A stretch of 64,000 nt of DNA from a virus. The notes below the pieces were generated by a model, which was given only the letters and a program-made list of their open reading frames with translations, had not been told where the DNA came from and did not search any database. The stretch's first letter is position 1, and the number at the start of each line of letters is the position of its first letter. Position numbers and translations under genes: made by a program. This document shows, piece by piece, positions 328 to 37,216 of this stretch. The stretch is from IMG/VR virus record IMGVR_UViG_3300008107_000012; one strand, 5' to 3'.

Positions 328-659
328 CTATCAAAACAACTGAACTTCTCAAACTCTTCACCAAAGTAGAAAAACTTGGATTGAGTGTTAATGTTCGTGA
401 AGACAAAGATGGTGATTATGTAATCAAAATCTTCAATATGTTTGAGTTTGATAGCAAATTTGAACCTTATAAGGTAGTTATTACTCAAACAGGTGAGAGT
501 GATTGGAATAAGGGAAATTTTTATTATTTTGATTGTATGATGGATATTCTTGATGAAATGTTAGAAAAACAAAAGCAAAAAGAAATCAAAGAACAAAAAC
601 GACAAGAATTGATTGCTAAACTTACTCCAGAGGAACGAGAACTTTTAAATCTAAACTAA
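324..659 (+). CDS. hypothetical protein, paralog of 6979..7365
   Basis: ORF; C-terminal ELIAKLTPEERELL shared with KVLAKLTQRERELL. Confidence 0.75.
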   Translation: MTIKTTELLKLFTKVEKLGLSVNVREDKDGDYVIKIFNMFEFDSKFEPYKVVITQTGESDWNKGNFYYFDCMMDILDEMLEKQKQKEIKEQKRQELIAKLTPEERELLNLN

Positions 660-666
660 ATAGAAA

Positions 667-725
667 TGTCTGTTGGTACGGCAATACTCTACGGACAGAT
701 TAGGTGCTCTTATGGGCACCTTTTC
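667..725 (+). ncRNA. candidate small RNA antisense to leader of downstream endonuclease (copy 1)
   Basis: TAAATA 657-662; stem 667-673/691-697; terminator 702-725; 669-683 pairs with 741-755. Confidence 0.6.
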
Positions 726-728
726 TAT

Positions 729-736
729 TATAAATA
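729..736 (+). promoter_or_regulatory. T4-type late promoter TATAAATA
   Basis: Exact gp55 consensus 25 nt before ATG 762. Confidence 0.8.
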
Positions 737-761
737 ATAATGCCGTACCAGTAGAATAGAA

Positions 762-1454
762 ATGACTTACCAAAGTCCAAGAATATATTTGTATAAAATT
801 ACCTTTGAAGAGGTTCCGTATTATTACTACGGAGTTCATAAGGAAAAATACTTTAATGAGGAATATTGGGGTTCTCCACAAACTCATAAATGGGTGTGGG
901 ATTTTTATACTCCAAAGAAACAAATACTTCAGGTGTTTTCTTATACTGATGAAGGTTGGTTGGAAGCAAATAATATTGAACGAAGAATAATAAAACCATT
1001 TCTTAATGATAATTTATGTTTAAATGAAGGATGTGCTGGTGCTTTTTCATTTAAAATTGCAAGTGATGCTGGTAAAATGGGAGGACAAAAAACCTATGAA
1101 ATGAAAGTTGGAGTTCACGGAAGAAATGAAGAACAACGAAAAATAGATGCTAAAAAAGGTGGAACTATAGGTGGAAAAATAGCATATAAAATGAAAGTTG
1201 GAGTTCACGGAAGAACCAAAGAACAAAGAAAGATTGATGCTAAAAAAGGTGGAAATGTTGGTGGAAAAATAGCAGTAGAACTTGGATTGGGTATTCACGC
1301 ACTTACTACAGAACAAAGAAGAGAAAATGCTAAAAAAGTTTCCTCACAGAAATGGATGTGTAAAGAAACTGGATTTATAAGTAATGCTGGGGCACTTACT
1401 CATTATCAAAGAAATAGAGGTATAGACACTTCCAAAAGAGTTAGAATAGAATAA
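762..1454 (+). CDS. GIY-YIG-like homing endonuclease with 30-aa tandem repeats
   Basis: N-terminal IYLYKI..YYYGVH, later E and N catalytic-like residues; 90-bp repeats at 1101 and 1191. Confidence 0.7.
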   Translation: MTYQSPRIYLYKITFEEVPYYYYGVHKEKYFNEEYWGSPQTHKWVWDFYTPKKQILQVFSYTDEGWLEANNIERRIIKPFLNDNLCLNEGCAGAFSFKIASDAGKMGGQKTYEMKVGVHGRNEEQRKIDAKKGGTIGGKIAYKMKVGVHGRTKEQRKIDAKKGGNVGGKIAVELGLGIHALTTEQRRENAKKVSSQKWMCKETGFISNAGALTHYQRNRGIDTSKRVRIE

Positions 1455-10888: not shown

Positions 10889-11485
10889 ATGGACTTTGAT
10901 TACAAAAAATATTCACTTGAAAAACTGAATGAATGGATGCACGATGCAATCTCCTGCAGTGAAGCAACACCGCAGGAGATTTATGATGTGATTAAAGATG
11001 TAGTGAGTGAGAACTATTACACTTACAAGAATGAAACTGAAAAGTGTTATGAACTTCTGGCACTTTTGAATGGTAATGGCAAGGGTCACATTCAAGCATA
11101 TGATGATTATATTCGAGAGAATGAAGATGTGACATATGATTATCCCAATGAGAACGGCATTTATTTCTGCGAGAGTGATGACCCAGCACCTTATTGCAAA
11201 GGTTCTTGGAGTAGTTTCTGGAATGACGATCATACTGAAGCATTAACTTATGGAGAAATGGTTGACAAAGGTTATGAAATGACTGGTGATGGGTTTTGGA
11301 TTCCTCCACAAAAAGGTAAAGTAGTCAAGTGGCAACTTCCTGTAGAGGTTGATGGATTGTCTGGTGAATGTTATGTCAACTTTCCCGATGATTTGCTAGA
11401 AGCAGCAAATCTCAAAGAAGGTGATAAGGTAGAGTGGGTAGATAATAATGATGGTAGTTTTACACTGAGGAAAGTTAATAAATAA
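10889..11485 (+). CDS. hypothetical protein with C-terminal AbrB/MazE-like domain
   Basis: YVNFPDDLLEAANLKEGDKVEWVDNNDGSFTLRKV. Confidence 0.65.
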   Translation: MDFDYKKYSLEKLNEWMHDAISCSEATPQEIYDVIKDVVSENYYTYKNETEKCYELLALLNGNGKGHIQAYDDYIRENEDVTYDYPNENGIYFCESDDPAPYCKGSWSSFWNDDHTEALTYGEMVDKGYEMTGDGFWIPPQKGKVVKWQLPVEVDGLSGECYVNFPDDLLEAANLKEGDKVEWVDNNDGSFTLRKVNK

Positions 11486-11488
11486 CAA

Positions 11489-11538
11489 TACCTGAATGAC
11501 GGCAATCTTCAGGAGGAGGGTGAAAGTCCCTCCTTTTT
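11489..11538 (+). ncRNA. candidate antisense small RNA (copy 2)
   Basis: TAAATA 11479-11484; stem CCTGAA/TTCAGG; terminator AGGAGGG/CCCTCCT-TTTT; 11492-11504 pairs with 11553-11565; second TATAAATA 11541-11548. Confidence 0.6.
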
Positions 11539-11574
11539 ATTATAAATAATAATGCCGTCATTTAGAGTAGAGTT

Positions 11575-12411
11575 ATGGTAAATCCATATAGATTTTATAC
11601 TTATGCATATTTGCGTAAAGACAGAACTCCTTATTACATAGGTAAAGGTTCTGGATATAGAATTTATGATAAAGGTAGAAGAGAATTTAAACCGCCGAAA
11701 GATAAATCAAGAATAATATTCCTCAAGCAAAATCTCACCGAAGAAGACGCATTCAAGCACGAAAGATATATGATTGCGTTCTTTGGTAGAAAAGATTTAG
11801 GAACTGGTATTCTTCGTAATAGAACTGATGGTGGAGAAGGTGGTAGTGGATGTATTGCAAGTGAAGAAACTAGAAGAAAAAGAAGAGAGACGAGTATTGG
11901 AAGAATAGTATCTCAAAAAACTAGAGATAAAATAAGTAAAGCAAATACAGGTAAAACTCATTCTGAAGAAACTAAAAAGAAGTTAAGTGAAATTAACAAA
12001 GGTAAAAAAATAAGCAAGGAACATTTACAAAAATTACAAAAAGGAAGTTTAACAGAAGAAACTAGAAGAAAACTTAGTCAGGCACGCAAAGGAAAAAAAC
12101 TTTCAGATGAAACTAGAAAAAAATTGAGTGAATTACATAAAGGAAAAAAATTAAGTAAAGAACATATAGAAAAAATAAAACAAACAAAGATTAAAATCGG
12201 TGGTAAATATACATATGAAATAATTTCTCCACAAAATCAAATATTTAAATCTAACAATTTAAAACAATTTTGTAGAGAGCACAATTTGCATAGTAGTCAT
12301 ATGTCTGCTGTAAGTAGAGGTAAAATGCAGCACTATAAAGGATGGATAGTAACAAGAACTCTTAAATGCGAGTTGTTTGACAAAAATAAATTAAAATCGT
12401 ATAATATCTAA
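11575..12411 (+). CDS. GIY-YIG homing endonuclease with NUMOD3-like repeats
   Basis: FYTYAYLR..TPYYIGKG, LRNRTDGGEG, repeated (H)SEETRRKLS. Confidence 0.85.
   Translation: MVNPYRFYTYAYLRKDRTPYYIGKGSGYRIYDKGRREFKPPKDKSRIIFLKQNLTEEDAFKHERYMIAFFGRKDLGTGILRNRTDGGEGGSGCIASEETRRKRRETSIGRIVSQKTRDKISKANTGKTHSEETKKKLSEINKGKKISKEHLQKLQKGSLTEETRRKLSQARKGKKLSDETRKKLSELHKGKKLSKEHIEKIKQTKIKIGGKYTYEIISPQNQIFKSNNLKQFCREHNLHSSHMSAVSRGKMQHYKGWIVTRTLKCELFDKNKLKSYNI
12377..12405 (+). promoter_or_regulatory. consensus sigma70 promoter inside 3' end of endonuclease
   Basis: TTGACA 12377-12382, 17 bp, TATAAT 12400-12405. Confidence 0.8.
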
Positions 12412-20133: not shown

Positions 20134-20158
20134 CTTAAAACTGACTACTAAATACTAA

Positions 20159-20215
20159 TGCCTTAGTTGACCGCAATCTGTAAGGTAGGAGAGGAGCAGA
20201 AATGCTCCTTTTCTT
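20159..20215 (+). ncRNA. candidate antisense small RNA (copy 3)
   Basis: TAAATA 20149-20154; stem GCCTTA/TAAGGT; terminator GGAGCA-GAAA-TGCTCC-TTTT; 20165-20175 pairs with 20229-20239; TATAAATA 20217-20224. Confidence 0.6.
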
Positions 20216-20250
20216 GTATAAATACTACTGCGGTTAACTTAAGAGCAGTT

Positions 20251-20946
20251 ATGTCTAATCAAGGCAAGATTTATTGTGCTCACTGTATTTTTACAGGGAA
20301 GAAATACATTGGACAAACAGTTAAAAAATATTTGAATTATAGAATAACAGAGCATTTTGCAGACTGTGTAAATTATAATCATAAGTTTGCAAATGCAATC
20401 AAAAAATATGGTAGAAATGGATTTATTTGGGGAATAGTTGAAGAATGTGATATTTCAATCTTAAATGATAGAGAGGTTTATTGGATAGAAAAATACGATA
20501 CATTTAATAATGGATATAATACAACTACTGGTGGAAATCAGGGAAGAGAATATTGCATAAAAGAATACCTTGTAGAAAAACCTAATGGGAACAGAGAGGA
20601 AATTAAAAATCTTTCTCAATATTGTAGAGATAATGACTTAAATATTGCACATATTCACGAAACACTTTATGGTAAGAGAGTTCAGCATAAAGGGTATAAA
20701 CTTATTCCAAGAACTGATTATGAAATTGAAAAATATGAAAATGAAAGAAGAATACGAAAAGATACCAGTAGAAAAAGATTGCCTGGAGAAAGAAATGGTA
20801 GAGCAATTCTTGATTGGAACAAAGTTAGTGAAATAAGAAGATTGCACTCAAGTAAGAAATATAAAAACCAGGAAATAGCAGATATGTTTGGAATTAAAAA
20901 GGTTACACTTGAAAAGATAGTTGCAAATAAACTGTGGACAGTTTGA
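20251..20946 (+). CDS. GIY-YIG homing endonuclease with C-terminal HTH
   Basis: GKIYC..KKYIGQT, RE..WI..Y..GYN.T.GG; start re-set to ATG 20251 after late promoter. Confidence 0.85.
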   Translation: MSNQGKIYCAHCIFTGKKYIGQTVKKYLNYRITEHFADCVNYNHKFANAIKKYGRNGFIWGIVEECDISILNDREVYWIEKYDTFNNGYNTTTGGNQGREYCIKEYLVEKPNGNREEIKNLSQYCRDNDLNIAHIHETLYGKRVQHKGYKLIPRTDYEIEKYENERRIRKDTSRKRLPGERNGRAILDWNKVSEIRRLHSSKKYKNQEIADMFGIKKVTLEKIVANKLWTV

Positions 20947-20986
20947 GAACTGCACACTTGACTTTTGGAAGAAAAGTTCTTATGAT
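20936..20986 (+). promoter_or_regulatory. early promoter cassette overlapping endonuclease stop
   Basis: GGACAGTTTGAGAACTGCACA; TTGACT-17-TATGAT. Confidence 0.7.
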
Positions 20987-21010
20987 GTATCTGTTAAACA
21001 AATGAGGTTA

Positions 21011-21250
21011 ATGTCACAAAAATTCTTGTATATCGTAGATCACTTTTGCAACTTTCCCCGTTCAGAATATGGGGGAATTTGGAATGTGATTGCAAAAGAT
21101 GATGATGAGTGTTTTGATTTAATTAAAGAATATGATGAAGGTCTTAATGAAGATTTTTATGTAAATCTACGGGAAAAAGTAGTTAATGCAAGGACTTATG
21201 CACTTGCTGAAGATGTTCAATCCTCCGTTCTTGAGGCATTTACGACCTGA
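21011..21250 (+). CDS. hypothetical protein
   Basis: ORF after promoter. Confidence 0.7.
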   Translation: MSQKFLYIVDHFCNFPRSEYGGIWNVIAKDDDECFDLIKEYDEGLNEDFYVNLREKVVNARTYALAEDVQSSVLEAFTT

Positions 21251-21591
21251 TGAGCAATCCTGAAATGAATCGTCTTGCTTTTGACCTGAAGCAACAGTAT
21301 CAAGAACGAATCACAGAACTGCAAAGTAAAATTACAGAGCAACAAAAAGAAATTCTACAACTTCAGGAACAGATTAAATACCTAACGTATCCAAAAGAAT
21401 ACGATTGTTGAGTTTATGATTTTCGCAGAAGGAACAGCAGTTATCTACAAGGGAATGTCTGGTGTGATTGATTTTGTGTGCGACCAGTATGTCGTGATAC
21501 AACTTCCAGCACAAGTAAGTCGAAATTCTCCAAGACTGCTGGTTTTTAGAGAATATTATAAACAAATTTCAATTTCAAAAGAATCAACCAA

Positions 21592-21849
21592 ATGAAGAAG
21601 AAAAATGCCTGGAGATGGTGGGCAAAATCTTTAGGTGAAAAAGCAAGTAAATGTGATAAAGAGTCTGATAAGATTGCTCTTATCAGAACTTTTATTTTTG
21701 CGACATATCTAATCACTAACTGTTTTATTGTTGCTGGAGTAATTCGTCATTGGAATGATAAAACAGTTGTGAATGTAGAAGTGAAAATGGATAATCCTAC
21801 ACCACCCATGGTTAAAACAAGACTCAATCGCACTGGTGAGTTTGAATAG
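21592..21849 (+). CDS. hypothetical membrane protein
   Basis: WRWWAKSLGEKA..NCFIVAGVIRHW. Confidence 0.7.
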   Translation: MKKKNAWRWWAKSLGEKASKCDKESDKIALIRTFIFATYLITNCFIVAGVIRHWNDKTVVNVEVKMDNPTPPMVKTRLNRTGEFE

Positions 21850-21875
21850 ATAAATATCTAAAAACTCAAAGTGCG

Positions 21876-22076
21876 ATGAAAACGTTTCAACAATTCAACG
21901 AAGATATTGATAGACTCACCCAGAGAAGACAACAACTTCGTCAAAGACAGTTGAAACAAATGGCGGCACATAAAGAGAAAGTTGCTGCTCATCGAGAAGC
22001 ACAAAGTAGAAAAAGACAGAAACAAGCAGAAAGAGAAGAATTAAAAAAAGAAATTAAGAGAGAGTTGCAATCATAA
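21876..22076 (+). CDS. putative internal head protein
   Basis: TAAATA 21851-21856; MKTFQQFNED. Confidence 0.65.
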   Translation: MKTFQQFNEDIDRLTQRRQQLRQRQLKQMAAHKEKVAAHREAQSRKRQKQAEREELKKEIKRELQS

Positions 22077-22089
22077 TAAAACTCAGGAT

Positions 22090-22147
22090 GGACACCTTGA
22101 GAACTGGCACAAGACCCCTTGTGCTCCCTGCCCTGATGGGTTATAGT
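22090..22147 (+). promoter_or_regulatory. early promoter cassette
   Basis: GGACACCTTGAGAACTGGCACA; TATAGT 22142-22147. Confidence 0.7.
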
Positions 22148-22172
22148 ACCTTTGTTGATGAGACGACCCCTG

Positions 22173-22439
22173 ATGTCCCGTTTCCTGACTATTCTTTTTG
22201 GTGAGAATGAGCACGGGTTCTGGAATGAACCAACCTATCACTCCACTCAACGTGCCGCAACTAAATGGGGAATGAGTATGTGGAATGTGGGTGAAGTGCT
22301 TGGTTATGTGGTTGTAAAGATTGACCATGAGACCTGGCAAGTTGTTGATGAAGAATCCCGCATCCCTGACTATAGTGTTTCTTGGGATGGATTTGGATTT
22401 GTGAAAGTCAAACGTGCCCCTAAACTGGTGATGGTGTGA
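22173..22439 (+). CDS. hypothetical protein
   Basis: ORF after promoter. Confidence 0.65.
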   Translation: MSRFLTILFGENEHGFWNEPTYHSTQRAATKWGMSMWNVGEVLGYVVVKIDHETWQVVDEESRIPDYSVSWDGFGFVKVKRAPKLVMV

Positions 22440-22486
22440 CAACTGGCACACCGACCACCTGACATCCCCCCATTTTCCCCTACAAT
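22429..22486 (+). promoter_or_regulatory. early promoter cassette (half site)
   Basis: AACTGGCACA ends 22450; TACAAT 22481-22486. Confidence 0.6.
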
Positions 22487-22511
22487 AACAAAGTAATTCA
22501 CGGAGCATCTC

Positions 22512-22982
22512 ATGGGTCTTGACATGTATCTCTATGCGAAGCAGTTTGTTGCTTCTTCTGCCTGGTCTAAGGAAGAAGATTGCAAGAAAGTGAAATCTAT
22601 TGCACGATTGATGAAAGGAACCAAGTTCTTGGATTCTGATGATCTGCAATTTGCTGAAGTGAAATTGCAACTTGCCTATTGGCGAAAAGCAAATCAAATT
22701 CACAAGTATTTTGTGGATAAGTGTGGTGGTGGTAAAGATGAATGTCAAGACATCTATGTGCCTCAAGATGCTCTTGTAGATCTTCTGTGGAGGTGTGAAA
22801 CCATCCTGAAAGATAAGAGTCGAGCAGAAGAACTGCTGCCTCCTCAATCTGGTTTCTTCTTCGGTGGCACTGAACTTGATGAGTATTATTATCGGGATCT
22901 GGAGCATACGATTCCTGTACTTCAAAAGATTCTCAAGAATGCTCAAGAATCTTGGGAGTTTGAGTACAAAGCAAGTTGGTAA
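22512..22982 (+). CDS. conserved phage protein (MGLDMYL family)
   Basis: MGLDMYL, YWRKANQIH, LLP..SGFFFG, YKASW. Confidence 0.8.
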   Translation: MGLDMYLYAKQFVASSAWSKEEDCKKVKSIARLMKGTKFLDSDDLQFAEVKLQLAYWRKANQIHKYFVDKCGGGKDECQDIYVPQDALVDLLWRCETILKDKSRAEELLPPQSGFFFGGTELDEYYYRDLEHTIPVLQKILKNAQESWEFEYKASW

Positions 22983-23040
22983 GGACACTTTGAGAACTGG
23001 CACAAGGGCACTTGAGTTTCCTTGAGTGCCCTGCTATACT
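22983..23040 (+). promoter_or_regulatory. early promoter cassette
   Basis: GGACACTTTGAGAACTGGCACA; AGGGCACT/AGTGCCCT stem; TGcTATACT. Confidence 0.75.
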
Positions 23041-23197
23041 ACATTTGCTCTTGAGATTTTTATGACCCCCGACACTTACACTTTTAGTGGTGATGCTGTT
23101 ACCTTCTTTGGTGCTGTTGCCCTATTTGCGACTCCTGTTCTTCTCTACTGGATTTTCCGTTCTTATTGGAACTCTCCTTATCGTAAATAAATAATAA

Positions 23198-23249
23198 TGC
23201 CTTAACTGACCGCAATCTGTAAGGTGGGAGGAGAGAAATCTCCTCCTTT
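23198..23249 (+). ncRNA. candidate antisense small RNA (copy 4)
   Basis: TAAATA 23188-23193; stem GCCTTA/TAAGGT; terminator GGAGGAGA-GAAA-TCTCCTCC-TTT; 23204-23214 pairs with 23266-23276; TATAAATA 23254-23261. Confidence 0.6.
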
Positions 23250-23289
23250 GTATTATAAATACTAATGCGGTTAGTTTAAGAGTGGAACT

Positions 23290-23889
23290 ATGGTAAATCC
23301 ATATAGATTTTATACCTATGCGTATTTGCGTGAGGATGGAACTCCTTATTACATAGGTAAAGGTCAAACAAATAGAATGTATTATAAATGTAAAATTGGT
23401 GATATTAGACCACCAGTAGATAAAACTAAAATTATTTTTCTCAAACAAAATTTAACTGAAGAGGAAGCATTTAAGCACGAAAAATATATGATTTCTATTC
23501 TTGGTAGAAAAGATTTGGGAAATGGTATTCTAAGAAATAGAACTAATGGTGGAGATGGAGTTTCTGGAAAAATATGGTCTGCGGAGGAAAGAAAATTAAA
23601 ATCTCAATCTTATCAGGGAATTAACAATCCATTTTATAACAAAACTCACACTAAAGAATCTAGAAGTAAAATAAAAGAAAGTAGGTCAAAAGAGTATATA
23701 ATTTATAGTCCAACATCAAAAGTATATAAAATTAAAAATTTAAAAGATTTTTGTATGCAGAACAACTTGGATTATACCAATATGAATAAACTTTCAAATA
23801 AAAGGTATAAATTTGGAAGTTCTTATAAGGGATGGACAGTTGAGAAACTGGAACAAACACTTCCCGCAGAGGCACCAAATACCCTATAA
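23290..23889 (+). CDS. GIY-YIG homing endonuclease, paralog of 11575..12411
   Basis: Near-identical N-terminus MVNPYRFYTYAYLR..YYIGKG; NPFYNKTHT NUMOD3-like motif. Confidence 0.85.
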   Translation: MVNPYRFYTYAYLREDGTPYYIGKGQTNRMYYKCKIGDIRPPVDKTKIIFLKQNLTEEEAFKHEKYMISILGRKDLGNGILRNRTNGGDGVSGKIWSAEERKLKSQSYQGINNPFYNKTHTKESRSKIKESRSKEYIIYSPTSKVYKIKNLKDFCMQNNLDYTNMNKLSNKRYKFGSSYKGWTVEKLEQTLPAEAPNTL

Positions 23890-25661: not shown

Positions 25662-25667
25662 TAGCAG

Positions 25668-25726
25668 TGTGCCACTTCTTTTGGTGGCACACTATTTTTG
25701 CATAGGTGCCCTGAACCTGCTATGAT
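25668..25726 (+). promoter_or_regulatory. early promoter cassette
   Basis: TGTGCCACTTCTTTTGGTGGCACA; TGcTATGAT. Confidence 0.8.
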
Positions 25727-25938
25727 GAACGGAGTTCACAAGGAAAAATGACTCTTACTTCCCTGACTTTTGAGGAGATTGATGCTCTCCTTGCTCTAAT
25801 TGAGTTTCACGATGACTGGGAGTTTGTGAGTGAACGTGTGGGTACAGATGTTAATGCTCTGTATGAAAAACTCTCAGAAATGAGAGATGAAGTTTGATTG
25901 ATTATACCCTGAAGTTTCTTAATTTTTAATTTCTTATT

Positions 25939-27171
25939 ATGCAGTTTTATCCCTACCAGCAACGTGCGATTGATGCAATCAAGCAGCACAGTAAAGGTTG
26001 CTGCTACATTCCCACTGGTGGTGGTAAATCGGTTGTGATGATGCAAGATGCAAAGGACCGAATCCTTGCTTCTCAACAACCTATGACTGTTGTTGTAGTC
26101 TCTCCCCGTATTCTTCTCACCAATCAACTCTGTGCAGAGTTTGAGGAATACCTGAAAGACTTTGATATTCAATATACCGAAGTTCATAGTGGAGAAACTC
26201 ACAATTTCTCTACTACCAAACCTTATGCAATTTACCAACGTAATCAGGAAGTAATCGCATCAGGTTCTCATCACTTTATCTTCACAACTTACAACTCCAT
26301 TCATCGCATCAATGAATCGCAGATTGATGTGAATGTTGTGTACTTTGATGAGGCACATCATTGTGTGAAGAAGTCGAACTTTGTTGGTATTGCTCACACT
26401 TCGCAGAACGCAGATAATGCTTATTTCTTCACTGCAACTCCTAAGATTGATAACTCTCAGCAGTCGATGAATAATACTGCTGTGTATGGACAGAAAATTA
26501 TTTCTGTGCCTGCATCAGAACTGATTGCTGCTGGTAGTATCATTCCTCCTAAGGTGATTTCTTATGAGGCAGAGTCTATCCGTACAAAGGAAAATGCACA
26601 CTTTGTCGATGCAGAGAACATTCTTGGTATCCTGAATGAGATTGAGGATGATGTAACTCCCAAAGTTCTTATTGCTTCTCCTAGCACCAAAGTGATTTGG
26701 AATATGTTTACTGAGAGTGACCTACTCAATGAACTTGATGCAATGGGATTTGCTGTGTTTCATATCACTGCAAAGCACGGTGCTTATGTAAACAAAAAGA
26801 AAGTCTCCCGTGAGAAGTTCTTTGAGTTGCTGAATGAGTATGGAAATGACCCTGACCAAAAGATGGTCGTGTTTCATTACTCTATTCTCAGTGAGGGTAT
26901 CAATGTTCATGGATTGACTCACTGCATTATGCTTCGCAATCTGCCTTGGATTGAAATGTGCCAAACGATTGGTCGAGTTGTGCGTATGCACCGTGATGAC
27001 CGTAAAGCAATTCAAGAAGGTAAGATTGCAGCAGGTAGTTATCAGTTCTACAAGAAGTCCTTTGGTAAGATTGTTGTTCCTGTAAACAACAACTATGGTG
27101 ATAAGATTGCCAATCAACTGCAGAATGTGGTTAATGCCGTCTTCGTGAAAGGAGAACTGTCTGCTACATAA
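25939..27171 (+). CDS. superfamily 2 (DEAH, ResIII-like) helicase
   Basis: PTGGGKS, DEAHH, TAT, LSEGI, QTIGRVVR. Confidence 0.9.
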   Translation: MQFYPYQQRAIDAIKQHSKGCCYIPTGGGKSVVMMQDAKDRILASQQPMTVVVVSPRILLTNQLCAEFEEYLKDFDIQYTEVHSGETHNFSTTKPYAIYQRNQEVIASGSHHFIFTTYNSIHRINESQIDVNVVYFDEAHHCVKKSNFVGIAHTSQNADNAYFFTATPKIDNSQQSMNNTAVYGQKIISVPASELIAAGSIIPPKVISYEAESIRTKENAHFVDAENILGILNEIEDDVTPKVLIASPSTKVIWNMFTESDLLNELDAMGFAVFHITAKHGAYVNKKKVSREKFFELLNEYGNDPDQKMVVFHYSILSEGINVHGLTHCIMLRNLPWIEMCQTIGRVVRMHRDDRKAIQEGKIAAGSYQFYKKSFGKIVVPVNNNYGDKIANQLQNVVNAVFVKGELSAT

Positions 27172-27197
27172 TATCAATATGTGACAAATGAATACTA

Positions 27198-27362
27198 ATG
27201 CCTTTCACAAAGAAGTTTCCTAAGTCAGGAGACACAACACACATAAGAGTTCCTAAAGTCTATGCAGACTTGGTTCTAGAGTTAATGGTACTCTTAGACC
27301 AAAAGTTTGAGGTAGACAAAGGAACTCATCTATTAAGAAAGTTCATAAGCAATCTTTCTTGA
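27198..27362 (+). CDS. small ribbon-helix-helix-like protein (54 aa)
   Basis: MPFTKKFPKSGDTTHIRVPKVYADLVLELM.. Confidence 0.5.
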   Translation: MPFTKKFPKSGDTTHIRVPKVYADLVLELMVLLDQKFEVDKGTHLLRKFISNLS

Positions 27363-27376
27363 GACTACTGTGAGAC

Positions 27377-27435
27377 TGTGCCACTTGTAGAGGTGGCACA
27401 GTAAAGTCCCGCAGACCCCCCAGATGCCCTATAAT
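27377..27435 (+). promoter_or_regulatory. early promoter cassette
   Basis: TGTGCCACTTGTAGAGGTGGCACA; TATAAT 27430-27435. Confidence 0.8.
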
Positions 27436-27459
27436 ACAGGGACACAAGCAAAGGAAACG

Positions 27460-27660
27460 ATGCACACTCTCATTCCTAACTTCACTTATGTTGAGGAGAC
27501 TGACCTTATCTGTGCTGCATTTCACTCTGTTGCTTTTATGAAGCAACTTGCTGATGAGAGTGTTGATAATAAAGGTTATTGGTTGCAACGTGCAGAGCAA
27601 CTTGAAAATGTTGCAAACAAACTGAACGAAGAAGTCCGCAATTTCTACTACAACAAATGA
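27460..27660 (+). CDS. hypothetical protein
   Basis: AAGGA SD. Confidence 0.7.
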   Translation: MHTLIPNFTYVEETDLICAAFHSVAFMKQLADESVDNKGYWLQRAEQLENVANKLNEEVRNFYYNK

Positions 27661-27860
27661 CTACCATTTCATTTACATCAGGGCAGATTCTAGACATTAT
27701 CTCTGCCCTTGAAGAAAAAGAAGATGCACTCTATGCTGCAGATGATAAACATCTTGCTGCCTACTACATGCAAATGGGGGCACAATTCCAACGTGTTTAT
27801 GATAGGTTGCAGGATGTAGTTCCTGAGAAACGTGTTGCTAACCTTGTTCTTGCTGCTTGA
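27657..27860 (+). CDS. hypothetical protein
   Basis: ATGA-coupled. Confidence 0.7.
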   Translation: MTTISFTSGQILDIISALEEKEDALYAADDKHLAAYYMQMGAQFQRVYDRLQDVVPEKRVANLVLAA

Positions 27861-27862
27861 TT

Positions 27863-28126
27863 ATGACGACTTCTAACCTTTCTAAAATCAAACCCAAACT
27901 TCGCACTCAAGGTGTTGTTTCTGGAAACTTTGGTCGTGCGAAGGTAAAATCAGGTTCTCCTCTCAAAGAGATTGGTGTAACCAAAGCAAAAGTAGTCAAA
28001 TGCACCACACAAGATGATTATCTCAATCGTCTTTATGTTGCATTTGATGAGACTGATGATAAGAAATTGAAGCAGTTTATCTATCAGCAAATTCGCAACA
28101 TTCACATTCAACGGGGAACTTGGTGA
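27863..28126 (+). CDS. hypothetical protein
   Basis: ORF. Confidence 0.7.
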   Translation: MTTSNLSKIKPKLRTQGVVSGNFGRAKVKSGSPLKEIGVTKAKVVKCTTQDDYLNRLYVAFDETDDKKLKQFIYQQIRNIHIQRGTW

Positions 28127-28271
28127 TGACTGTTCCTAATCTCACAAGTCAACACATAGATTTTAATGCTTGGTTGGAGCAGTGTCCTGTTGAATGGTTC
28201 AAGAGTGCAAAACCAAGTGTAAATGGTTCTGCAACTTATGAGTTCTTTTTTGATTCTGTAAAAGAGGAAGA

Positions 28272-28529
28272 ATGAAACCCTATCAGTACAACCTAAAAGT
28301 TTGGGAAGGTGGTGAAACTTCACGCACTTGGCAGTTTGGTATCTTCAAAAATCATTCACTCCTGTGGGTGAATTATGAAAATCCCAGTAGTCAAGTTTGG
28401 ATGTCTGGTGGGCTTCATATCTCATTCTCATTCTTTGGTTCTTCTCTGTTTGGTGTAGATTTTGAGACCAATAGTTGGTCTTTTTCATTTAACTTTTTTA
28501 CTGAATACTTTGAGGGGTGGAATAACTGA
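28272..28529 (+). CDS. hypothetical protein
   Basis: ORF. Confidence 0.6.
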   Translation: MKPYQYNLKVWEGGETSRTWQFGIFKNHSLLWVNYENPSSQVWMSGGLHISFSFFGSSLFGVDFETNSWSFSFNFFTEYFEGWNN

Positions 28530-28696
28530 TGGTAGGAATGGAACATGAGTGCTACATCCAAAAAGCAGTAAAGCAACATCTGCTTGATTGTATGCAACGA
28601 CCAGAGTACATTAACTATCCTCACTGCGACCTGATAGCAGATTACACGGCAAAGATTAAAAAGATAGATGAGTTCCTAGAGGAGTTTGATAGGTGA

Positions 28697-28755
28697 TGTG
28701 CCACTTGTTCTAGTGGCACAGTAAAAGAGCACGGGGGCACTGGATGCCCTATAAT
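28697..28755 (+). promoter_or_regulatory. early promoter cassette
   Basis: TGTGCCACTTGTTCTAGTGGCACA; TATAAT 28750-28755. Confidence 0.8.
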
Positions 28756-28776
28756 ACCAAAACACAAGCAAAGGAA

Positions 28777-29043
28777 ATGTCTATTCTCTCAATCGAAAGT
28801 ATCAATCTCAGTGAAGACTATGTGACAGTTACTGCTGTTATTGAAGATGTAGTTCTTACCTATGCTGGAAGTTATTTTGACCCACCAGAGTATGGACCTG
28901 CACGGTGTAGTTCTACTTTTGAGTTGGGAGAAGATGAAACACTCCCAACCGATGAAAATGAACTACTGAAATATATTGAGTCTCGTGATTTGTATTGGGA
29001 AGTGATGGAAGATGATGATTATAATTACGATGATTATGCTTGA
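28777..29043 (+). CDS. acidic hypothetical protein
   Basis: DPPEYGPARC motif. Confidence 0.7.
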   Translation: MSILSIESINLSEDYVTVTAVIEDVVLTYAGSYFDPPEYGPARCSSTFELGEDETLPTDENELLKYIESRDLYWEVMEDDDYNYDDYA

Positions 29044-29055
29044 TTCTTGATGCCA

Positions 29056-29125
29056 TGTGCCACTTGTTCTTGTGGCACACTAAAAGAGCACGGATCCCAA
29101 AATGTGGTATTCTTAAAGGGTGGTG
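29056..29125 (+). repeat. long promoter-cassette repeat, copy A
   Basis: TGTGCCACTTGTTCTTGTGGCACACTAAA.GAGCACGG..AAATGTGGTATT.TTAAAGGGTGG also at 29802 and 31365. Confidence 0.85.
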
Positions 29126-29226
29126 AGGGAGGCAATAAGACCACCTCGATAACGTCAACTGACATCTTGGCAAGTATGCTGTTATCTAACCTCATCACTT
29201 TTAAGTTTACAAGCAAAGGAAACTAA

Positions 29227-29448
29227 ATGACTGAAGCATCCCTTGTTCCTAATACTTTCGCACGACAGTGGATTGAAGACCATTATGTATGTGCAGGTAG
29301 TTCTGGTGCTAATCTTGTGCAACTTGCAGAAGATGGTGTAATTCAATGGGAAGACATTGCACGGGCATTTATCTATGATGCAGATGAGACTGCATCGCAT
29401 AATGCTTGGGTGCGAGTCGCAGAATGGATGCAATACACTCCTGTGTGA
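29227..29448 (+). CDS. hypothetical protein
   Basis: AAGGA SD. Confidence 0.7.
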   Translation: MTEASLVPNTFARQWIEDHYVCAGSSGANLVQLAEDGVIQWEDIARAFIYDADETASHNAWVRVAEWMQYTPV

Positions 29449-29591
29449 ATGGCAAAAACACTTACATTCAAGAAACCAAATAAAATGCGATTGATTCTCT
29501 TTTGTTTCATTATTGCTTTTATTTGTTCTCCAGGTGTGAGGAATCTCACAGCAAACACACTTTACACTGTCGCAGACATTATTTCTACTAA

Positions 29592-29777
29592 ATGAAAACT
29601 ATGCTTGATAAAGTCCTGATGGTTGAAGAACTACTGAACGAAAAGCAACTTAATGCTCTTCGTGACATGCTTGATGTGTATAAAGAGTTGCAAAAAGAAG
29701 TTCATAATTATCCCCCAGAGGATACCTTGTTTACTCAAACTCAACGTGAAATCTTTGAGATTTTTGATGTTGACTGA
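29592..29777 (+). CDS. hypothetical protein
   Basis: ORF. Confidence 0.65.
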   Translation: MKTMLDKVLMVEELLNEKQLNALRDMLDVYKELQKEVHNYPPEDTLFTQTQREIFEIFDVD

Positions 29778-29801
29778 ATGTTGGTGAGTCCAGTGTTGAG
29801 A

Positions 29802-29892
29802 TGTGCCACTTGTTCTTGTGGCACACTAAATGAGCACGGGGTCTCAAATGTGGTATTCTTAAAGGGTGGGAGGAGCAAGTCCCACTCAAGTC
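29802..29892 (+). repeat. long promoter-cassette repeat, copy B
   Basis: See copy A; leader hairpin GGGTGGGA/TCCCACTC. Confidence 0.85.
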
Positions 29893-29910
29893 TCATTCAT
29901 TATTCTTATT

Positions 29911-30585
29911 ATGGACCGTCAGCAAGTTATTGCTAAAATCCAGTCGATTCTCAAACTGCAGAATGGAACTGACTTTGAGGGTGAAGCATCTGCTGCTGCA
30001 CGGATGATTGATAAACTGTGCAAACAGTATGGAATCACCGTTGATGAAGCAACAGAAACTCAAGTTCTTGATGAGTCTTTTGTCTCTTTCAAGAGGTTGA
30101 ATGTTGCTCTCACCACTCTTGCTAATGCGATTGCTAAGTTCTACGATGCTTCTGCTTACCTGAAGAACGGAGATACTAAGTCTTTGCAAATCATCGGTAG
30201 TGAAGCACAACAAATCCAAGTGCGTCTCTATTATGATTACCTGGTTCAGGTGATGGAGAAAGAGGCAGAAGTTGCACATAAAGCAGAGAAAGTTCTTGCT
30301 GAAACTCTGGGCACTTCTGTATCCCGTTCCTTTAAGTTGAACTTCCGCAAGGCATTTGCAGATAAAGTTGCAGAACGTCTGCGTGAAATGAAACTTGAAG
30401 AGAATCGAGTGCATGATGATGCAGAGGCAGTGAAGAACAAACTCTCCACGATGCGATTTGGTCGTGCCAAGAAAATGAATGGTGCTAGTGGTGCTGGTGC
30501 TTATTCTGGTGCAAACGTAGGTGCTGGTGTATCTCTAAACCGTCAAGCATCGGGTTCTGTTGCCAAGCAACTCTGCGGGGTGTGA
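29911..30585 (+). CDS. DUF2786-like protein
   Basis: IAKIQSILKL....EGEASAA..KLCKQYGI; C-terminal G...G..VSLNRQ. Confidence 0.7.
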   Translation: MDRQQVIAKIQSILKLQNGTDFEGEASAAARMIDKLCKQYGITVDEATETQVLDESFVSFKRLNVALTTLANAIAKFYDASAYLKNGDTKSLQIIGSEAQQIQVRLYYDYLVQVMEKEAEVAHKAEKVLAETLGTSVSRSFKLNFRKAFADKVAERLREMKLEENRVHDDAEAVKNKLSTMRFGRAKKMNGASGAGAYSGANVGAGVSLNRQASGSVAKQLCGV

Positions 30586-30607
30586 GTTAATCTCACCCCT
30601 TTTTTTA
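30578..30607 (+). terminator. intrinsic terminator
   Basis: GGGTG(T)GAG-TTAAT-CTCACCC followed by T-run. Confidence 0.65.
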
Positions 30608-30821
30608 TTCTTTTCTTCCTACGATTATGATTAACACCACTATCACTCTTGAAGAAGTCCTCAAAGAAATGGAAATCAAAGCATTTATTGATAGTGTAGA
30701 ATCTTCTAATCGACTTGAAGGCATTATTGTTTCTCGTGAAAAAATTGAAGAAATTTGCATAGGAACTTTTGATGTTGAATAGTTACTTCTTTACAAACTC
30801 TTACATTATTTCTTTTTGATT

Positions 30822-31151
30822 ATGATTTCTAATTTTTCTCTTGGTCAGTGCAAAGTTCTCTGGGTCATCGGTGCTCTCGAACGTCTTGCAACTCTTGGTA
30901 TGTTGAATAGTGACATTCCTCTCAAAATTGCTGCAGATGTAATTGACGATTATCTTGAAATTGATAATGACCGTCAGTATCTGTTTGAGAGTGATTTTGA
31001 GATTGCACAAATCTTCCGTTGTATTGCTAATGAGCATAATGACGGAGAGGAAAATGAGGAAGACATTTGTAGTGTGATTGAACTTCTGCTGAACTATAAG
31101 AATGACCGTGAAGAACTTGTGAAGTATGCTCTTTCCACATCATTTGTTTGA
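30822..31151 (+). CDS. acidic hypothetical protein
   Basis: ORF. Confidence 0.7.
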   Translation: MISNFSLGQCKVLWVIGALERLATLGMLNSDIPLKIAADVIDDYLEIDNDRQYLFESDFEIAQIFRCIANEHNDGEENEEDICSVIELLLNYKNDREELVKYALSTSFV

Positions 31152-31364
31152 TGTGCTAGAATTGTCCTGTTATGGAGAATCAAATGATTGACATTCAACT
31201 TACACAGGAAGAAGTGAATACTATTCTTCAAGGTCTTTTTCTTCTTGAAGACCAAGAATGGTTCAGGGGTCATAGTAAAACAGAACCACTGATTGAGAAA
31301 TTTAATCAATTTCTGCCTGAGGAGGAGTGAACTTACCCCAATCTCACTGAGTCCAATGATGCCG

Positions 31365-31456
31365 TGTGCCACTTGTTCTTGTGGCACACTAAATGAGCAC
31401 GGACCCCAAAATGTGGTATTATTAAAGGGTGGAGGGAGCAAGTCCCACCCGAGTCC
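31365..31456 (+). repeat. long promoter-cassette repeat, copy C
   Basis: See copy A/B. Confidence 0.85.
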
Positions 31457-31477
31457 AATTCCCAATTCTCTACAACA

Positions 31478-31819
31478 ATGGAACTGACTAAATCTTTCCC
31501 CCCTCTTGATGGTCTTGTTGAGTTTAGCAACAAGAAACTCAAAGAGTTTGATTATGTTCAATTTGGTCAAGATGTAATTCAATTTGCCGCAACTTTTGCT
31601 GCTATTGTTGTTGGTGTTGTTTCCTATGTGTGGACTGCACTGCAACTGTGGTGGGAAGATAATGGTGAAGCAACGCAAGTTAATTTCATTCGATTTGTTG
31701 TGAATGTAATTGATTTCATCGGTGCTGTTGTGATTGCAACTCCCAAAGTTTATCGTTGGGTGAAACTGAACAGCAACCGACTGATTGATTCTCTGTTCTT
31801 CCAAGTTGCTTTTAACTGA
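31478..31819 (+). CDS. hypothetical membrane protein
   Basis: Two hydrophobic segments. Confidence 0.7.
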   Translation: MELTKSFPPLDGLVEFSNKKLKEFDYVQFGQDVIQFAATFAAIVVGVVSYVWTALQLWWEDNGEATQVNFIRFVVNVIDFIGAVVIATPKVYRWVKLNSNRLIDSLFFQVAFN

Positions 31820-31974
31820 ATCTAACTGATGATTGACGTTCTTCTTGCTTCAACGATTATCGGTCAGGTTGTAATTGGACCGAATCAAATCCAAACAGAA
31901 TACATTACTGACCGTAATCAAGTGATTACGATTGTCGAGACCATTCAAGAAACTTACAACTATCCCAACTGATT

Positions 31975-32148
31975 ATGAATCGCACTGAACTGATTGAAGC
32001 ATACGTTGACCGTATCCTTGATAACATGAGCACCAAAGATTTGATGCGAATTGTTGGAGACCAACTGGATGAAAACTTCAGTTCTTATAGTGATGAAGAA
32101 CTGATTGCTGAAATTACTGAATACTACCCTGAATTGCTTGAGGAGTGA
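31975..32148 (+). CDS. small acidic protein, paralog of 34230..34457
   Basis: Y.DRILDNM.TKDL..YSDEELIAEI. Confidence 0.7.
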   Translation: MNRTELIEAYVDRILDNMSTKDLMRIVGDQLDENFSSYSDEELIAEITEYYPELLEE

Positions 32149-32155
32149 GAACTGA

Positions 32156-32215
32156 TGTGCCAGTAATTCTTCTGGCACATTACACTCCCCAAACCCCACC
32201 TGTCCCTGCTATACT
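32156..32215 (+). promoter_or_regulatory. early promoter cassette
   Basis: TGTGCCAGTAATTCTTCTGGCACA; TGcTATACT. Confidence 0.8.
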
Positions 32216-32237
32216 GAACACAGTTCAACAAACGACC

Positions 32238-32654
32238 ATGCCTGTGACTTTCACCGACAACTACAAAGAAGTTTTCGCAACCGAAACTGTTGAGAAAATT
32301 GAAGAACTGCTGGAAGATAACTATTGCCTGGAAGACATCCTTGAGTTTATTGACCAAAATACGGAAGAAGATTTCCGTGACTATTATGAAGAGTATGTGA
32401 CTGCTGGTGAGGATTATGGTTACAGTGCAGTCGATGCTTTCATTGAAGAGTTTGGACTTGATTGTGTTTCTTCCTTTACCGAATCTTACCAAGGTGAGTA
32501 TTCGAGTGAGGCACAGTTTGCAGAACAGTTCTGCGAAGACATGGGTTATGAAGTTCCTTCCTTTGTAATTGTTGATTGGCAAGAAACTTTTGATTACAAC
32601 CTGCAGTATGACTATTCCTATGTGAATGGTTATGTCTTCAACAAAAACTTCTGA
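32238..32654 (+). CDS. ArdA-like antirestriction / DNA-mimic protein
   Basis: Very acidic; YQGEYSSEAQFAEQ..VIVDWQ..DY..NGYVF resembles ArdA C-terminus. Confidence 0.65.
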   Translation: MPVTFTDNYKEVFATETVEKIEELLEDNYCLEDILEFIDQNTEEDFRDYYEEYVTAGEDYGYSAVDAFIEEFGLDCVSSFTESYQGEYSSEAQFAEQFCEDMGYEVPSFVIVDWQETFDYNLQYDYSYVNGYVFNKNF

Positions 32655-32661
32655 GTGAAGT

Positions 32662-32703
32662 GAATCAGCACCTTATTTCTTTGAGGTGCTGATTCTTATT
32701 TTT
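32662..32703 (+). terminator. hairpin/terminator
   Basis: GAATCAGCACCT/AGGTGCTGATTC then TTATTTTT. Confidence 0.6.
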
Positions 32704-32722
32704 CCACATTCCTCTTCTTTTA

Positions 32723-32971
32723 ATGTTTAATCAACTTACATTTGTCCCGCATTGTATTCCAAATGCAGTGCAAGGAAAGTACAAGTTTTCCAATGGTTGG
32801 GAGATTAGTGTAGTCTCTGGTGATGCTAAGTCTGGTCTATACGGTCGAATTGCTGAGTTTACTTATGAAGTTGCAATCTTTCGACCGAATGGAAACATGA
32901 CTGAAGATGTAAGTGGTTGGAATACTAAAGAAGAAGTATCTGCGATGATGTGGGTACTGTCTCAACTCTAG
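32723..32971 (+). CDS. conserved phage protein
   Basis: FSNGWEISVV..GLYG..YEVAI..DV.GW. Confidence 0.75.
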   Translation: MFNQLTFVPHCIPNAVQGKYKFSNGWEISVVSGDAKSGLYGRIAEFTYEVAIFRPNGNMTEDVSGWNTKEEVSAMMWVLSQL

Positions 32972-32983
32972 TCTCTTATACCG

Positions 32984-33043
32984 TGTGCCACTTGTTGAAG
33001 TGGCACAGTCAACCCCCCAGACCCCCCTCCCCCGTGGTAGACT
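32984..33043 (+). promoter_or_regulatory. early promoter cassette (most perfect palindrome)
   Basis: TGTGCCACTTGTTGAAGTGGCACA; TGgTAGACT. Confidence 0.8.
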
Positions 33044-36108: not shown

Positions 36109-36681
36109 CTAAAGTATAAAGTTAGAAAAGTCCGGTAGTTTCTTATCATCCTTAAGATTACTTTTTTGATTTTTTACTTGTGCCCTTATATTCTCTTTTC
36201 TTTTCTCTAAGTTGATTTCGTTAATGCTTTTATTTTCAATTACTTTGTTTTGACATAGTTTTTCTTCTAATTCACAGTCCATAGAACTAATAAAATCAAT
36301 AAAACTTTCTCTAATCTTTTTATATTCACTTAAAGGAAGTTTTTCAAGTTTCTTTATCTGTGTGTTTTTCCATTCTAAATGAGTTAGAAGATTGCTTTGT
36401 TGTTTTAATAACTCAGCAAAAGTATTATCAATCCATTCATTTATAGAATTGATGGTATTATCTTTAGTTTTCTCTTTTTGATAGATTATATCTTCAGTAT
36501 CACTTTTTGATATTTTTAATATTTCTGTTTTATTTTTAATAATATCTCCAATTCCTTTTTTACGATTGAGATTGAAAGTGGAGATTGAATTGAATTCTTT
36601 TTTAATGTCCTCTATTTGGATATAATCTAATCCATCAACATTAAAGACTTCATTTAACTTTTTACAGTTAAAGTGTTCCAT
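36109..36681 (-). CDS. hypothetical coiled-coil protein; the only credible minus-strand gene
   Basis: 190-aa ORF preceded by TATAAATA (36708-36715, minus). Confidence 0.7.
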   Translation of the reverse strand: MEHFNCKKLNEVFNVDGLDYIQIEDIKKEFNSISTFNLNRKKGIGDIIKNKTEILKISKSDTEDIIYQKEKTKDNTINSINEWIDNTFAELLKQQSNLLTHLEWKNTQIKKLEKLPLSEYKKIRESFIDFISSMDCELEEKLCQNKVIENKSINEINLEKRKENIRAQVKNQKSNLKDDKKLPDFSNFIL

Positions 36682-36717
36682 ATCTGTTCTGTTTGGGTTG
36701 CAGAAGTTATTTATATT

Positions 36718-36777
36718 AAAGGGAGCAGAGAGAATCTAACTCTGCTCCCCGTCTGTAAAGTGCAACCCAAACAGACA
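36718..36777 (-). ncRNA. candidate antisense small RNA (copy 5)
   Basis: TAAATA 36781-36786 (minus); stem GTCTGT/ACAGAC; terminator GGGAGCAGAG/CTCTGCTCCC-TTT; 15-nt perfect complement 36761-36775 vs 36688-36702. Confidence 0.6.
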
Positions 36778-37013
36778 TTATATTTATCAAATACCCAGTA
36801 TTGATAAATATCATAAAACCCTGATAATTGTATATAATTGAATATTAAGTATATAAATAACCGAGTATGAAATACAATAATTAGGATTGAACTTAAAGTA
36901 AATTTCTATTCCAAGAGAGCACAATAGGCAGTTCACCTGATGAGATAAGTCTTTCGCACAGGACAAATAGAAATCTCTGCTACTTTCAGTAATGATTATT
37001 GTTTATAGTATAA

Positions 37014-37176
37014 AAAGTTCATTCGTTATTAGATAATTGATGTATAATATTATCACATAATCATTATATTATAAATTGAATTAAAAGTTCATTCGTGATT
37101 AGATAGATTTCGTATGCTTTCTTATAATAGAAGAGCACTACGCATTATCATCACAAAGTTCATTCGTGATTAGATA
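37014..37176 (+). repeat. three 22-bp direct repeats at 70-71 bp period
   Basis: AAAGTTCATTCGT(T/G)ATTAGATA at 37014, 37084, 37155. Confidence 0.9.
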
Positions 37177-37216
37177 TGCTTCGTATGAGATTTTCACATA
37201 TAAGCATAGAACAAGA

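Follow-up and report, generated by a model that had tools for sequence, protein, structure and literature searches.

Hairpins that sequester the ribosome-binding site and carry a nested late promoter have been described for I-TevI, I-TevII, I-TevIII, segB and mobE of the Aeromonas phage Aeh1, whereby early and middle read-through RNA hides the ribosome site and the late promoter located in the hairpin gives rise to RNA free of the inhibitory arm; the mobE transcripts are also processed internally (PMC2988022). Hairpins preceding free-standing GIY-YIG and Vsr-like endonucleases of 'fractured genes' were reported by Dassa et al. (2009) from environmental T4-like phage loci of ocean and lake metagenomes: they precede the start codon in 15 of the 16 loci, 10 with TATAAATA, consist of two mutually complementary motifs and span different host genes and nuclease types (PMC2677866). 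Five cassettes of about 100 nucleotides (nt), all of one architecture, are present in the window, i.e., the whole analysed stretch of 64,000 nt of the virus record IMGVR_UViG_3300008107_000012. Their main function is probably that of a cis gate which masks the ribosome site of the following gene until late, in the manner of T4 I-TevI, segB and mobE, and by analogy the cassette appears to be a more elaborate, portable form of this known T4-type mask.

From 5′ to 3′, the cassette is composed of a late-promoter-like box (P1), a small hairpin (hp1), a GC-rich hairpin with a T-run, a second box (P2), a leader and the ATG (Table 1). The window variants of P1 are ACTAAATA, AATAAATA and GATAAATA; hp1 starts 5 nt after the box and has a stem of 5-6 bp with a loop of 13-15 nt. 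P2 is a perfect TATAAATA, the T4-type late promoter box, in all five copies. The leader begins with TGC 4-5 nt after P2, and its first 11-15 nt, together with part of the Shine-Dalgarno sequence, are complementary to the 5′ stem half and the loop of hp1. The helix between this 5′ arm and the leader is the minimum-energy structure in five of five copies (z-scores from −5.0 to −7.8) and encloses both the terminator-like hairpin and P2. The covariance model R1 matches exactly these five loci, and a scan of the whole 95-kb contig gave no cassette beyond them. No family was found by Rfam at gathering thresholds across the whole window. BLAST of copy 4 against cultured phages gave no match, and the only match of copy 1 was Synechococcus phage S-SRM01. 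In a terminator scan of the window under a strict T-run rule, the hairpin of copy 4 was the only one listed among the cassettes, as the top match.

The constraint on the arm-leader helix was apparent in a larger sample. The pattern used to scan IMG/VR fixed only GCAATCT, TATAAATA and TGC, leaving the seed free, and returned at least 116 loci. Among the matches listed (at least 117), the lengths of the pair runs were bimodal, with 74 reaching 9-15 contiguous pairs from GCA/TGC and the remainder 3-7, as expected by chance. A relaxed search yielded 88 cassettes with 55 arm/leader combinations and 4-6 pair types at most helix positions, and P2 was TATAAATA in all 88, always between the arms. The 77 distinct cassettes from viral contigs were aligned with plain MAFFT (alignment A1), and RNAalifold on this alignment alone returned the long-range helix, with compensatory changes in 11 of its 14 pairs. 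In A1, 98.4% of the cells of the helix were paired, as compared to 78.1% when the columns were shuffled (0 of 500) and 26-37% when the partners were shifted along, and the covariation score was 0.578 versus 0.186. Moreover, the pair within the Shine-Dalgarno sequence covaries (CG 56, UA 18), so the ribosome site itself belongs to the helix, and the GCA/TGC top of the helix was also swapped for other complementary pairs in cassettes found by the covariance model. At the helix positions that had played no part in choosing the sample, 28 G·U stood against 3 A·C, which places the constraint on the sense-strand RNA and not on the DNA. The stem of hp1, counted per sequence (MAFFT loses the register of its 3′ arm), covaries as well, with a three-way covariation of hp1 stem, arm and leader in 72 of 72 unique cassettes. 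The initial annotation had held that the pairing is under selection, and the larger alignment bears this out: seed and leader changes are clearly correlated. On five large records the covariance model found 5, 3, 1, 9 and 6 cassettes, the 6 being those of S-SRM01.

Two side observations concern the same sample. The G·U pairs of the long helix are lopsided among the 55 unique arm-leader pairs of A1: the 5′ arm supplies the G and the leader the U in 35 cases, and the roles are exchanged in 6. This may reflect a leader kept low in C, or a strand mutation bias. In four loci (L001:3123-3239, L034:1337-1455, L063:2872-2987 and L136:1501-1620), P2 is directly preceded by an additional degenerate box (TATAAAC and some 4 nt), which looks like a partial duplication of the promoter.

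Within the window, copies 3 and 4 present such a compensated change. The arm of copy 3 is GCCTTAGTTGACCGCA and its leader TGCGGTTAACT (20229-20239); copy 4 has the arm GCCTTAACTGACCGCA and the leader TGCGGTTAGTT (23266-23276). The sole difference between their 30-nt upstream units is GT (20166-20167) versus AC (23205-23206), and the leader counterpart is AC (20237-20238) in copy 3 versus GT (23274-23275) in copy 4, whereby two helix pairs are exchanged (G-C/U-A versus A-U/C-G). This mirrored difference with the pairing kept, as pointed out by the initial annotation, was confirmed by direct reading of the sequence. All four changes are transitions and amount to two double transitions with possible G·U intermediates; the difference is ordinary RNA-level compensatory evolution of the arm-leader helix. 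There are exactly two occurrences of the 18-mer TGACCGCAATCTGTAAGG in the window, with 0.04 expected. The near-identity of the two copies, also claimed earlier, holds for the first ~30 nt and the leader, but not for the terminator hairpins, which differ substantially and are of different types; the cassette itself is thus mosaic. The nucleases downstream are dissimilar, as had been stated: the N-termini of the copy 3 and copy 4 proteins have no similarity and fall into different clusters (N2 and N1, respectively), with only a 55-amino-acid (aa) C-terminal stretch at 27% identity. Conversely, the nucleases starting at 11575 (copy 2) and 23290 (copy 4) are indeed related (56% identity over 140 aa, E = 3e-51) despite different arms, CCTGAATGACGGCA in copy 2 and GCCTTAACTGACCGCA in copy 4; the hp1 stems of these two copies also differ by a compensated change, CCTGA/TCAGG versus CCTTA/TAAGG.

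The cassettes resemble the masks of the T4 family, to which those of T4 e, soc and 49 also belong, in that an upstream segment pairs with the ribosome-binding site of the nuclease gene, the late promoter TATAAATA lies inside the hairpin and the gene is located within a region transcribed earlier from upstream. Indeed, the cassette helix covers both the leader and the Shine-Dalgarno sequence. The cassette differs from the T4 masks in several respects: its loop additionally harbours a strong hairpin of the terminator type, the arm on the 5′ side makes a small covarying hairpin of its own, which renders the design bistable, another late-type box stands at a constant spacing before this arm, and the whole is a portable module of about 100 nt with 85-97% identity across unrelated nuclease families and insertion sites. 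The hairpins of Dassa et al. very probably belong to the same element family, judged by their published description, which includes neither P1, hp1 and the embedded terminator nor quantified covariation, module borders and a cross-pairing test (Dassa et al., 2009; PMC2677866).

If the cassette works as a cis gate, transcripts entering from upstream would mostly be stopped at the embedded terminator. On read-through, the leader would displace the 3′ arm of hp1, and the resulting long-range helix of 14-17 bp would bury the ribosome site and leave the nuclease untranslated, whereas transcripts started at P2, which are devoid of the 5′ arm, would be translatable. Because P2 is placed inside the helix loop and its RNA has no 5′ arm, the nuclease would be made only late. 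As hp1 and the leader compete for the same 5′-arm bases and covary with them throughout, the RNA is predicted to be bistable: terminated molecules would form hp1 and the terminator, read-through molecules the long helix. For the Shine-Dalgarno region, the predicted unpaired probability is 0.27 with the 5′ arm versus 0.62 from P2, with an increase in 76 of 77 cassettes. What the sequences establish is the anatomy, the covariation, the module borders (see below) and the predicted change in accessibility; the promoter activity, the terminator activity and the translational effect are inferred.

Strong sigma-70-like promoters end or follow the nuclease open reading frames (ORFs) of the window at 12377-12405, 20958-20986 and ~1480-1513; a TTGACA-17-TATAAT with 12 of 12 matches lies inside the end of the ORF 11575-12411. 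Their position is consistent with the cassette terminator insulating incoming transcription, and the inserted module seems to restore transcription of the downstream gene. For the T4 seg/mob genes, such a restored downstream transcription has been described.

The cargo proteins of the collected cassettes form five main N-terminal clusters and a number of singletons; four clusters are GIY-YIG-like, and the other cargo includes the NUMOD3-bearing homing-endonuclease family phrog_655, HNH endonucleases and a weak PD-(D/E)XK-like case. More than one cargo cluster was found with 10 of the 33 distinct 13-nt arms, and one of these arms occurred with four; each main cluster had 5-14 arms. In 89 pairs with an identical 16-nt arm and different cargo, the cassettes were 90% identical (85-97%), as compared to 59% over the preceding 100 nt and 62% over the initial 150 nt of the gene, where the background values are 58% and 62%. 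In comparison, 246 pairs with gene starts at least 75% identical and different seeds had a cassette identity of 73% versus a background of 71%. The similarity in the alignment begins at the P1 box and ends at the start codon, and such sharp borders mark the cassette as a discrete unit that assorts independently of the cargo and the insertion site. The earlier suggestion that the regulatory cassette recombines independently of its cargo was thus upheld by the border identities, and the sequences support recombination among nuclease genes of several families as well as among insertion sites. In a tree of the N1 nucleases, the seed labels changed 15 times (minimum 13, shuffles 16-20); this points to independent assortment too, but the tree was poorly resolved (1 starred branch), and the conclusion rests on the border-identity analysis. 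Within 1.2 Mb of sequence, the upstream unit was linked to P2 and the leader in 63 cases with 2 doubtful ones, and a search of the same sequence for orphan P1-hp1-terminator units gave none convincing.

Several loci of the larger sample deserve separate mention. Two identical cassettes of one IMG/VR contig (L128:1501-1605 and L131:1501-1605) precede clearly diverged nucleases of the same family, 231 and 298 aa in length, which suggests cassette conversion or swapping within one genome. In L032:1354-1560 (−) and L116:998-1200 (−), the copy 2 arm is combined with HNH cargo and directly follows a conserved, GC-rich, structured-looking flank. This flank may be a group I intron core, in which case the cassette would also serve intron-encoded nucleases. 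At its 5′ edge, the cassette frequently adjoins the end of the upstream gene or takes its place.

In the window, the cargo of copies 1-4 matched PHROG homing-endonuclease families and Pfam NUMOD3. The Pfam GIY-YIG models remained below cut-off for these proteins (LEM-3_GIY-YIG 18.1 with 27 needed), and GIY/YIG-like N-terminal motifs were recognised by eye. On this basis, they are probably homing endonucleases of the GIY-YIG type with NUMOD3 tails. For the 190-aa cargo of copy 5, the searches of Pfam, PHROG and PDB gave no relative; this gene could encode a novel type of nuclease, or it could be a non-nuclease gene with a captured cassette.

Several points weigh against a cis gate as the complete explanation. 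Promoter, terminator and masking are all predictions. The AUG is not predicted to become more open (0.51 versus 0.46), and the Shine-Dalgarno sequence is weak in copies 1 and 5, which makes the masked target less clear there. Furthermore, the cis model alone explains neither the invariant P1 at its fixed spacing nor the conservation of hp1 with its own covarying stem, and the stretch from P1 to the terminator, for which a neat fold into two hairpins (51-69 nt, with a loop holding the seed) is always predicted, would go beyond the needs of that model. If P1 fires late, arm-bearing RNA would be made together with the P2 messenger, which suits an additional role in trans or in dosage. Type I toxin-antitoxin pairs with adjacent, non-overlapping antisense RNAs, such as zor-orz and tisB-istR, are similar insofar as a small RNA (putative for the cassette) lies beside a potentially harmful gene and is complementary to its 5′ untranslated region or ribosome site. 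The cassette units, however, are tandem and co-oriented, so the same pairing also works in cis on read-through RNA, and their cargo is a homing nuclease and not a small membrane toxin. By extension, a P1-driven late RNA of about 55 nt, consisting of hp1 and the terminator, could act as an antisense small RNA in trans, its loop seed pairing with the 5′ end and Shine-Dalgarno sequence of the P2 messenger and throttling translation, possibly besides the cis mask; we put this forward tentatively, as less probable than a gate acting in cis alone. The corresponding two-gene RNA circuit, in which the antisense RNA and the cis mask jointly titrate the nuclease messenger, is likewise conceivable but doubtful. 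The P1 core TAAATA is invariant in 77 of 77 aligned cassettes and present in 86 of 88 of the relaxed set, its distance to the first paired base of hp1 is always 5 nt, and the main variants are NATAAATA (63) and NCTAAATA (23), of which the former is the cyanophage late consensus (PMC2984593). Both also precede other genes of the window, e.g., at 55123 before a baseplate gene. The seed of the predicted RNA is largely unpaired (probability 0.67), the hp1 stem covaries, and the cognate duplexes of the five window pairs, at −20 to −27 kcal/mol, are stronger than most non-cognate ones (−5 to −13 kcal/mol). On the other hand, the stop codon of the preceding gene lies within P1 or directly before it in 47 of 78 cassettes (60%; TAA of TAAATA in 24, TAA of TAAATAA in 16, the codon just before the box in 7), which is a further reason for the box to be conserved. 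The cis model, in which hp1 may be a folding guard or a toehold, needs or tolerates each of the structural features equally well, and the upstream unit is never convincingly unlinked from its target leader. A search of the 95-kb contig for extra targets of the five arms found full matches only in the cognate leaders, and G·U-tolerant matching gave about 23 chance matches per arm, a noise which makes the search uninformative. A literature search for a phage homing-endonuclease small RNA found no paper.

The same duplex energies bear on the proposal of the initial annotation that seeds diversify into orthogonal specificities, i.e., that selection drives them apart so that the small RNA/leader pairs of one genome avoid cross-talk. 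The five window seeds are all different, as are the seeds in most multi-cassette contigs, and the duplex matrix is dominated by its diagonal. Such a dominance follows from the maintenance of each helix, under a cis or a trans model alike, and variable stems with fixed loops and boxes are normal for any conserved RNA helix. Although most non-cognate pairs were weaker, cross-pairing between copies 3 and 4 reaches −16.1 and −18.9 kcal/mol, almost as strong as for the cognates (−23.1 and −19.9 kcal/mol), the copy 3 arm pairing with the copy 4 leader via two G·U pairs. In the nine-cassette contig G004, two cassettes that precede diverged nucleases are identical, and another pair differs by only 1 seed base, with a cross energy of −20.2. 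Among 29 cassettes, strong non-cognate duplexes made up 4.7% within genomes versus 6.9% between them (permutation p = 0.28), and the mean non-cognate energy was −9.4 versus −9.8 (p = 0.16). There is no sign of selection for within-genome orthogonality; as the sample is small, this leaves the proposal unsupported without disproving it, and we consider such addressing quite unlikely. A slightly better, still low probability is given to the helix acting as a processing site: 14-17 bp on read-through RNA might be an RNase III-type substrate, cleavage of which would separate the upstream and nuclease messages and destroy the leader, besides or instead of masking. All copies have a long, almost perfect helix, and the internal processing of Aeh1 mobE transcripts, reportedly found by Gibb and Edgell in 2007, would fit. 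However, classical phage RNase III sites are longer than the cassette helix. Least probable is an inverted repeat that acts in the DNA, as a recombination or cruciform site at which the nuclease gene was inserted. The arms do form an inverted repeat around ~55 bp, and the cassettes are mobile with sharp borders. Yet the repeat tolerates G·T and not A·C and has G mostly in the 5′ arm (see the counts above), and this one-sided tolerance means that it is read on one strand only, as RNA; moreover, the Shine-Dalgarno sequence lies within the helix and covaries. The cis gate with a nested late promoter thus remains the favoured reading.

Table 1. Positions of the five cassettes, their parts and their cargo genes in the window.
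Feature	Position	Strand	Evidence and remarks
Copy 1, whole cassette	655..764	+	R1, 90.8 bits; predicted 15-bp helix with 2 G·U
Copy 1, parts	P1 655-662; arm 669-683; terminator-like hairpin ~703-728; P2 729-736; leader 741-755	+	
Copy 1, cargo ORF	762-1454	+	cluster N4; phrog_314
Copy 2, whole cassette	11477..11577	+	R1 match; predicted fold
Copy 2, parts	P1 11477-11484; arm 11491-11504; terminator-like hairpin ~11514-11540; P2 11541-11548; leader 11553-11565	+	
Copy 2, cargo ORF	11575-12411	+	cluster N1; NUMOD3 repeats
Copy 3, whole cassette, P1 box to ATG	20147..20253	+	R1, 102.7 bits; z = −5.0
Copy 3, P1 ACTAAATA	20147..20154	+	5 nt before first paired base
Copy 3, hp1 (GCCTTA...TAAGGT)	20160..20186	+	leader-pairing arm = 5′ half and loop, 20160-20175
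Copy 3, GC-rich hairpin and T-run	20187..20216	+	intrinsic-terminator-like; predicted folds
Copy 3, P2 TATAAATA	20217..20224	+	within loop of long helix
Copy 3, leader arm TGCGGTTAACT, bulged T, Shine-Dalgarno	20229..20245	+	Shine-Dalgarno AAGAG, 20241-20245
Copy 3, cargo	20251..20946	+	predicted GIY-YIG-type homing endonuclease, 231 aa; cluster N2; phrog_7168, phrog_5123, phrog_314
Copy 4, whole cassette	23186..23292	+	R1, 98.1 bits; predicted fold
Copy 4, parts	P1 23186-23193; arm 23199-23214; hp1 to 23225; terminator-like hairpin 23226-23253; P2 23254-23261; leader 23266-23282; Shine-Dalgarno 23278-23282	+	
Copy 4, cargo	23290..23889	+	predicted homing endonuclease, 199 aa; cluster N1; NUMOD3
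Copy 5, whole cassette	36679..36788	−	R1 match; predicted fold
Copy 5, parts	P1 36788-36781; arm 36775-36761; terminator-like hairpin 36750-36718; P2 36715-36708; leader 36702-36688	−	
Copy 5, cargo ORF	36681-36109	−	190 aa; no family

The window is part of a T4-like cyanomyovirus: T4-type baseplate wedge genes are present in it, and its only DNA neighbours are the Synechococcus phages S-T4 and S-SRM01. Concerning T4-type late transcription (gp55/gp33), g55 is present in all cyanomyoviruses according to the literature (PMC2984593); the contig is estimated to be ~44% complete. Late-type boxes N[A/C]TAAATA at 4885, 13735, 18737, 21849 and 55123 share the leader c/tCTAAAAA with an ATG 15-25 nt later, which looks like the ordinary late promoter and leader of the phage. 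Other repeats of the window include the family D1 (25666-33023) and the pair D15 (22090-22163 / 22983-23056), in which palindromes GTGCCAC-N-GTGGCAC and a GAGAACTGGCACAAG motif stand just upstream of -35/-10-like boxes, probably the early promoter/operator architecture of the phage. Three direct repeats spaced by ~70 bp and beginning with AAAGTTCATTCGTGATTAGATA occupy 37014-37204, in the divergent intergenic region adjoining copy 5.

Homing endonucleases must stay harmless to the phage that carries them, and masking in T4 is known from a handful of genes. The cassette is a standardised, portable module of about 100 nt with hundreds of natural variants, which makes it an extensive natural source of covariation data on a bistable RNA, and it is a clear case of a regulatory element moving independently of the selfish gene that it controls. 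The negative result on orthogonality argues that the diversity of seeds is drift under a pairing constraint and not a diversification of addresses. The cassette is also a concrete candidate for a phage-encoded late antisense RNA; if this proves true, each homing endonuclease would be accompanied on its moves by an RNA 'antitoxin' of its own, with the module as a safety device swapped among GIY-YIG, HNH and other nucleases.

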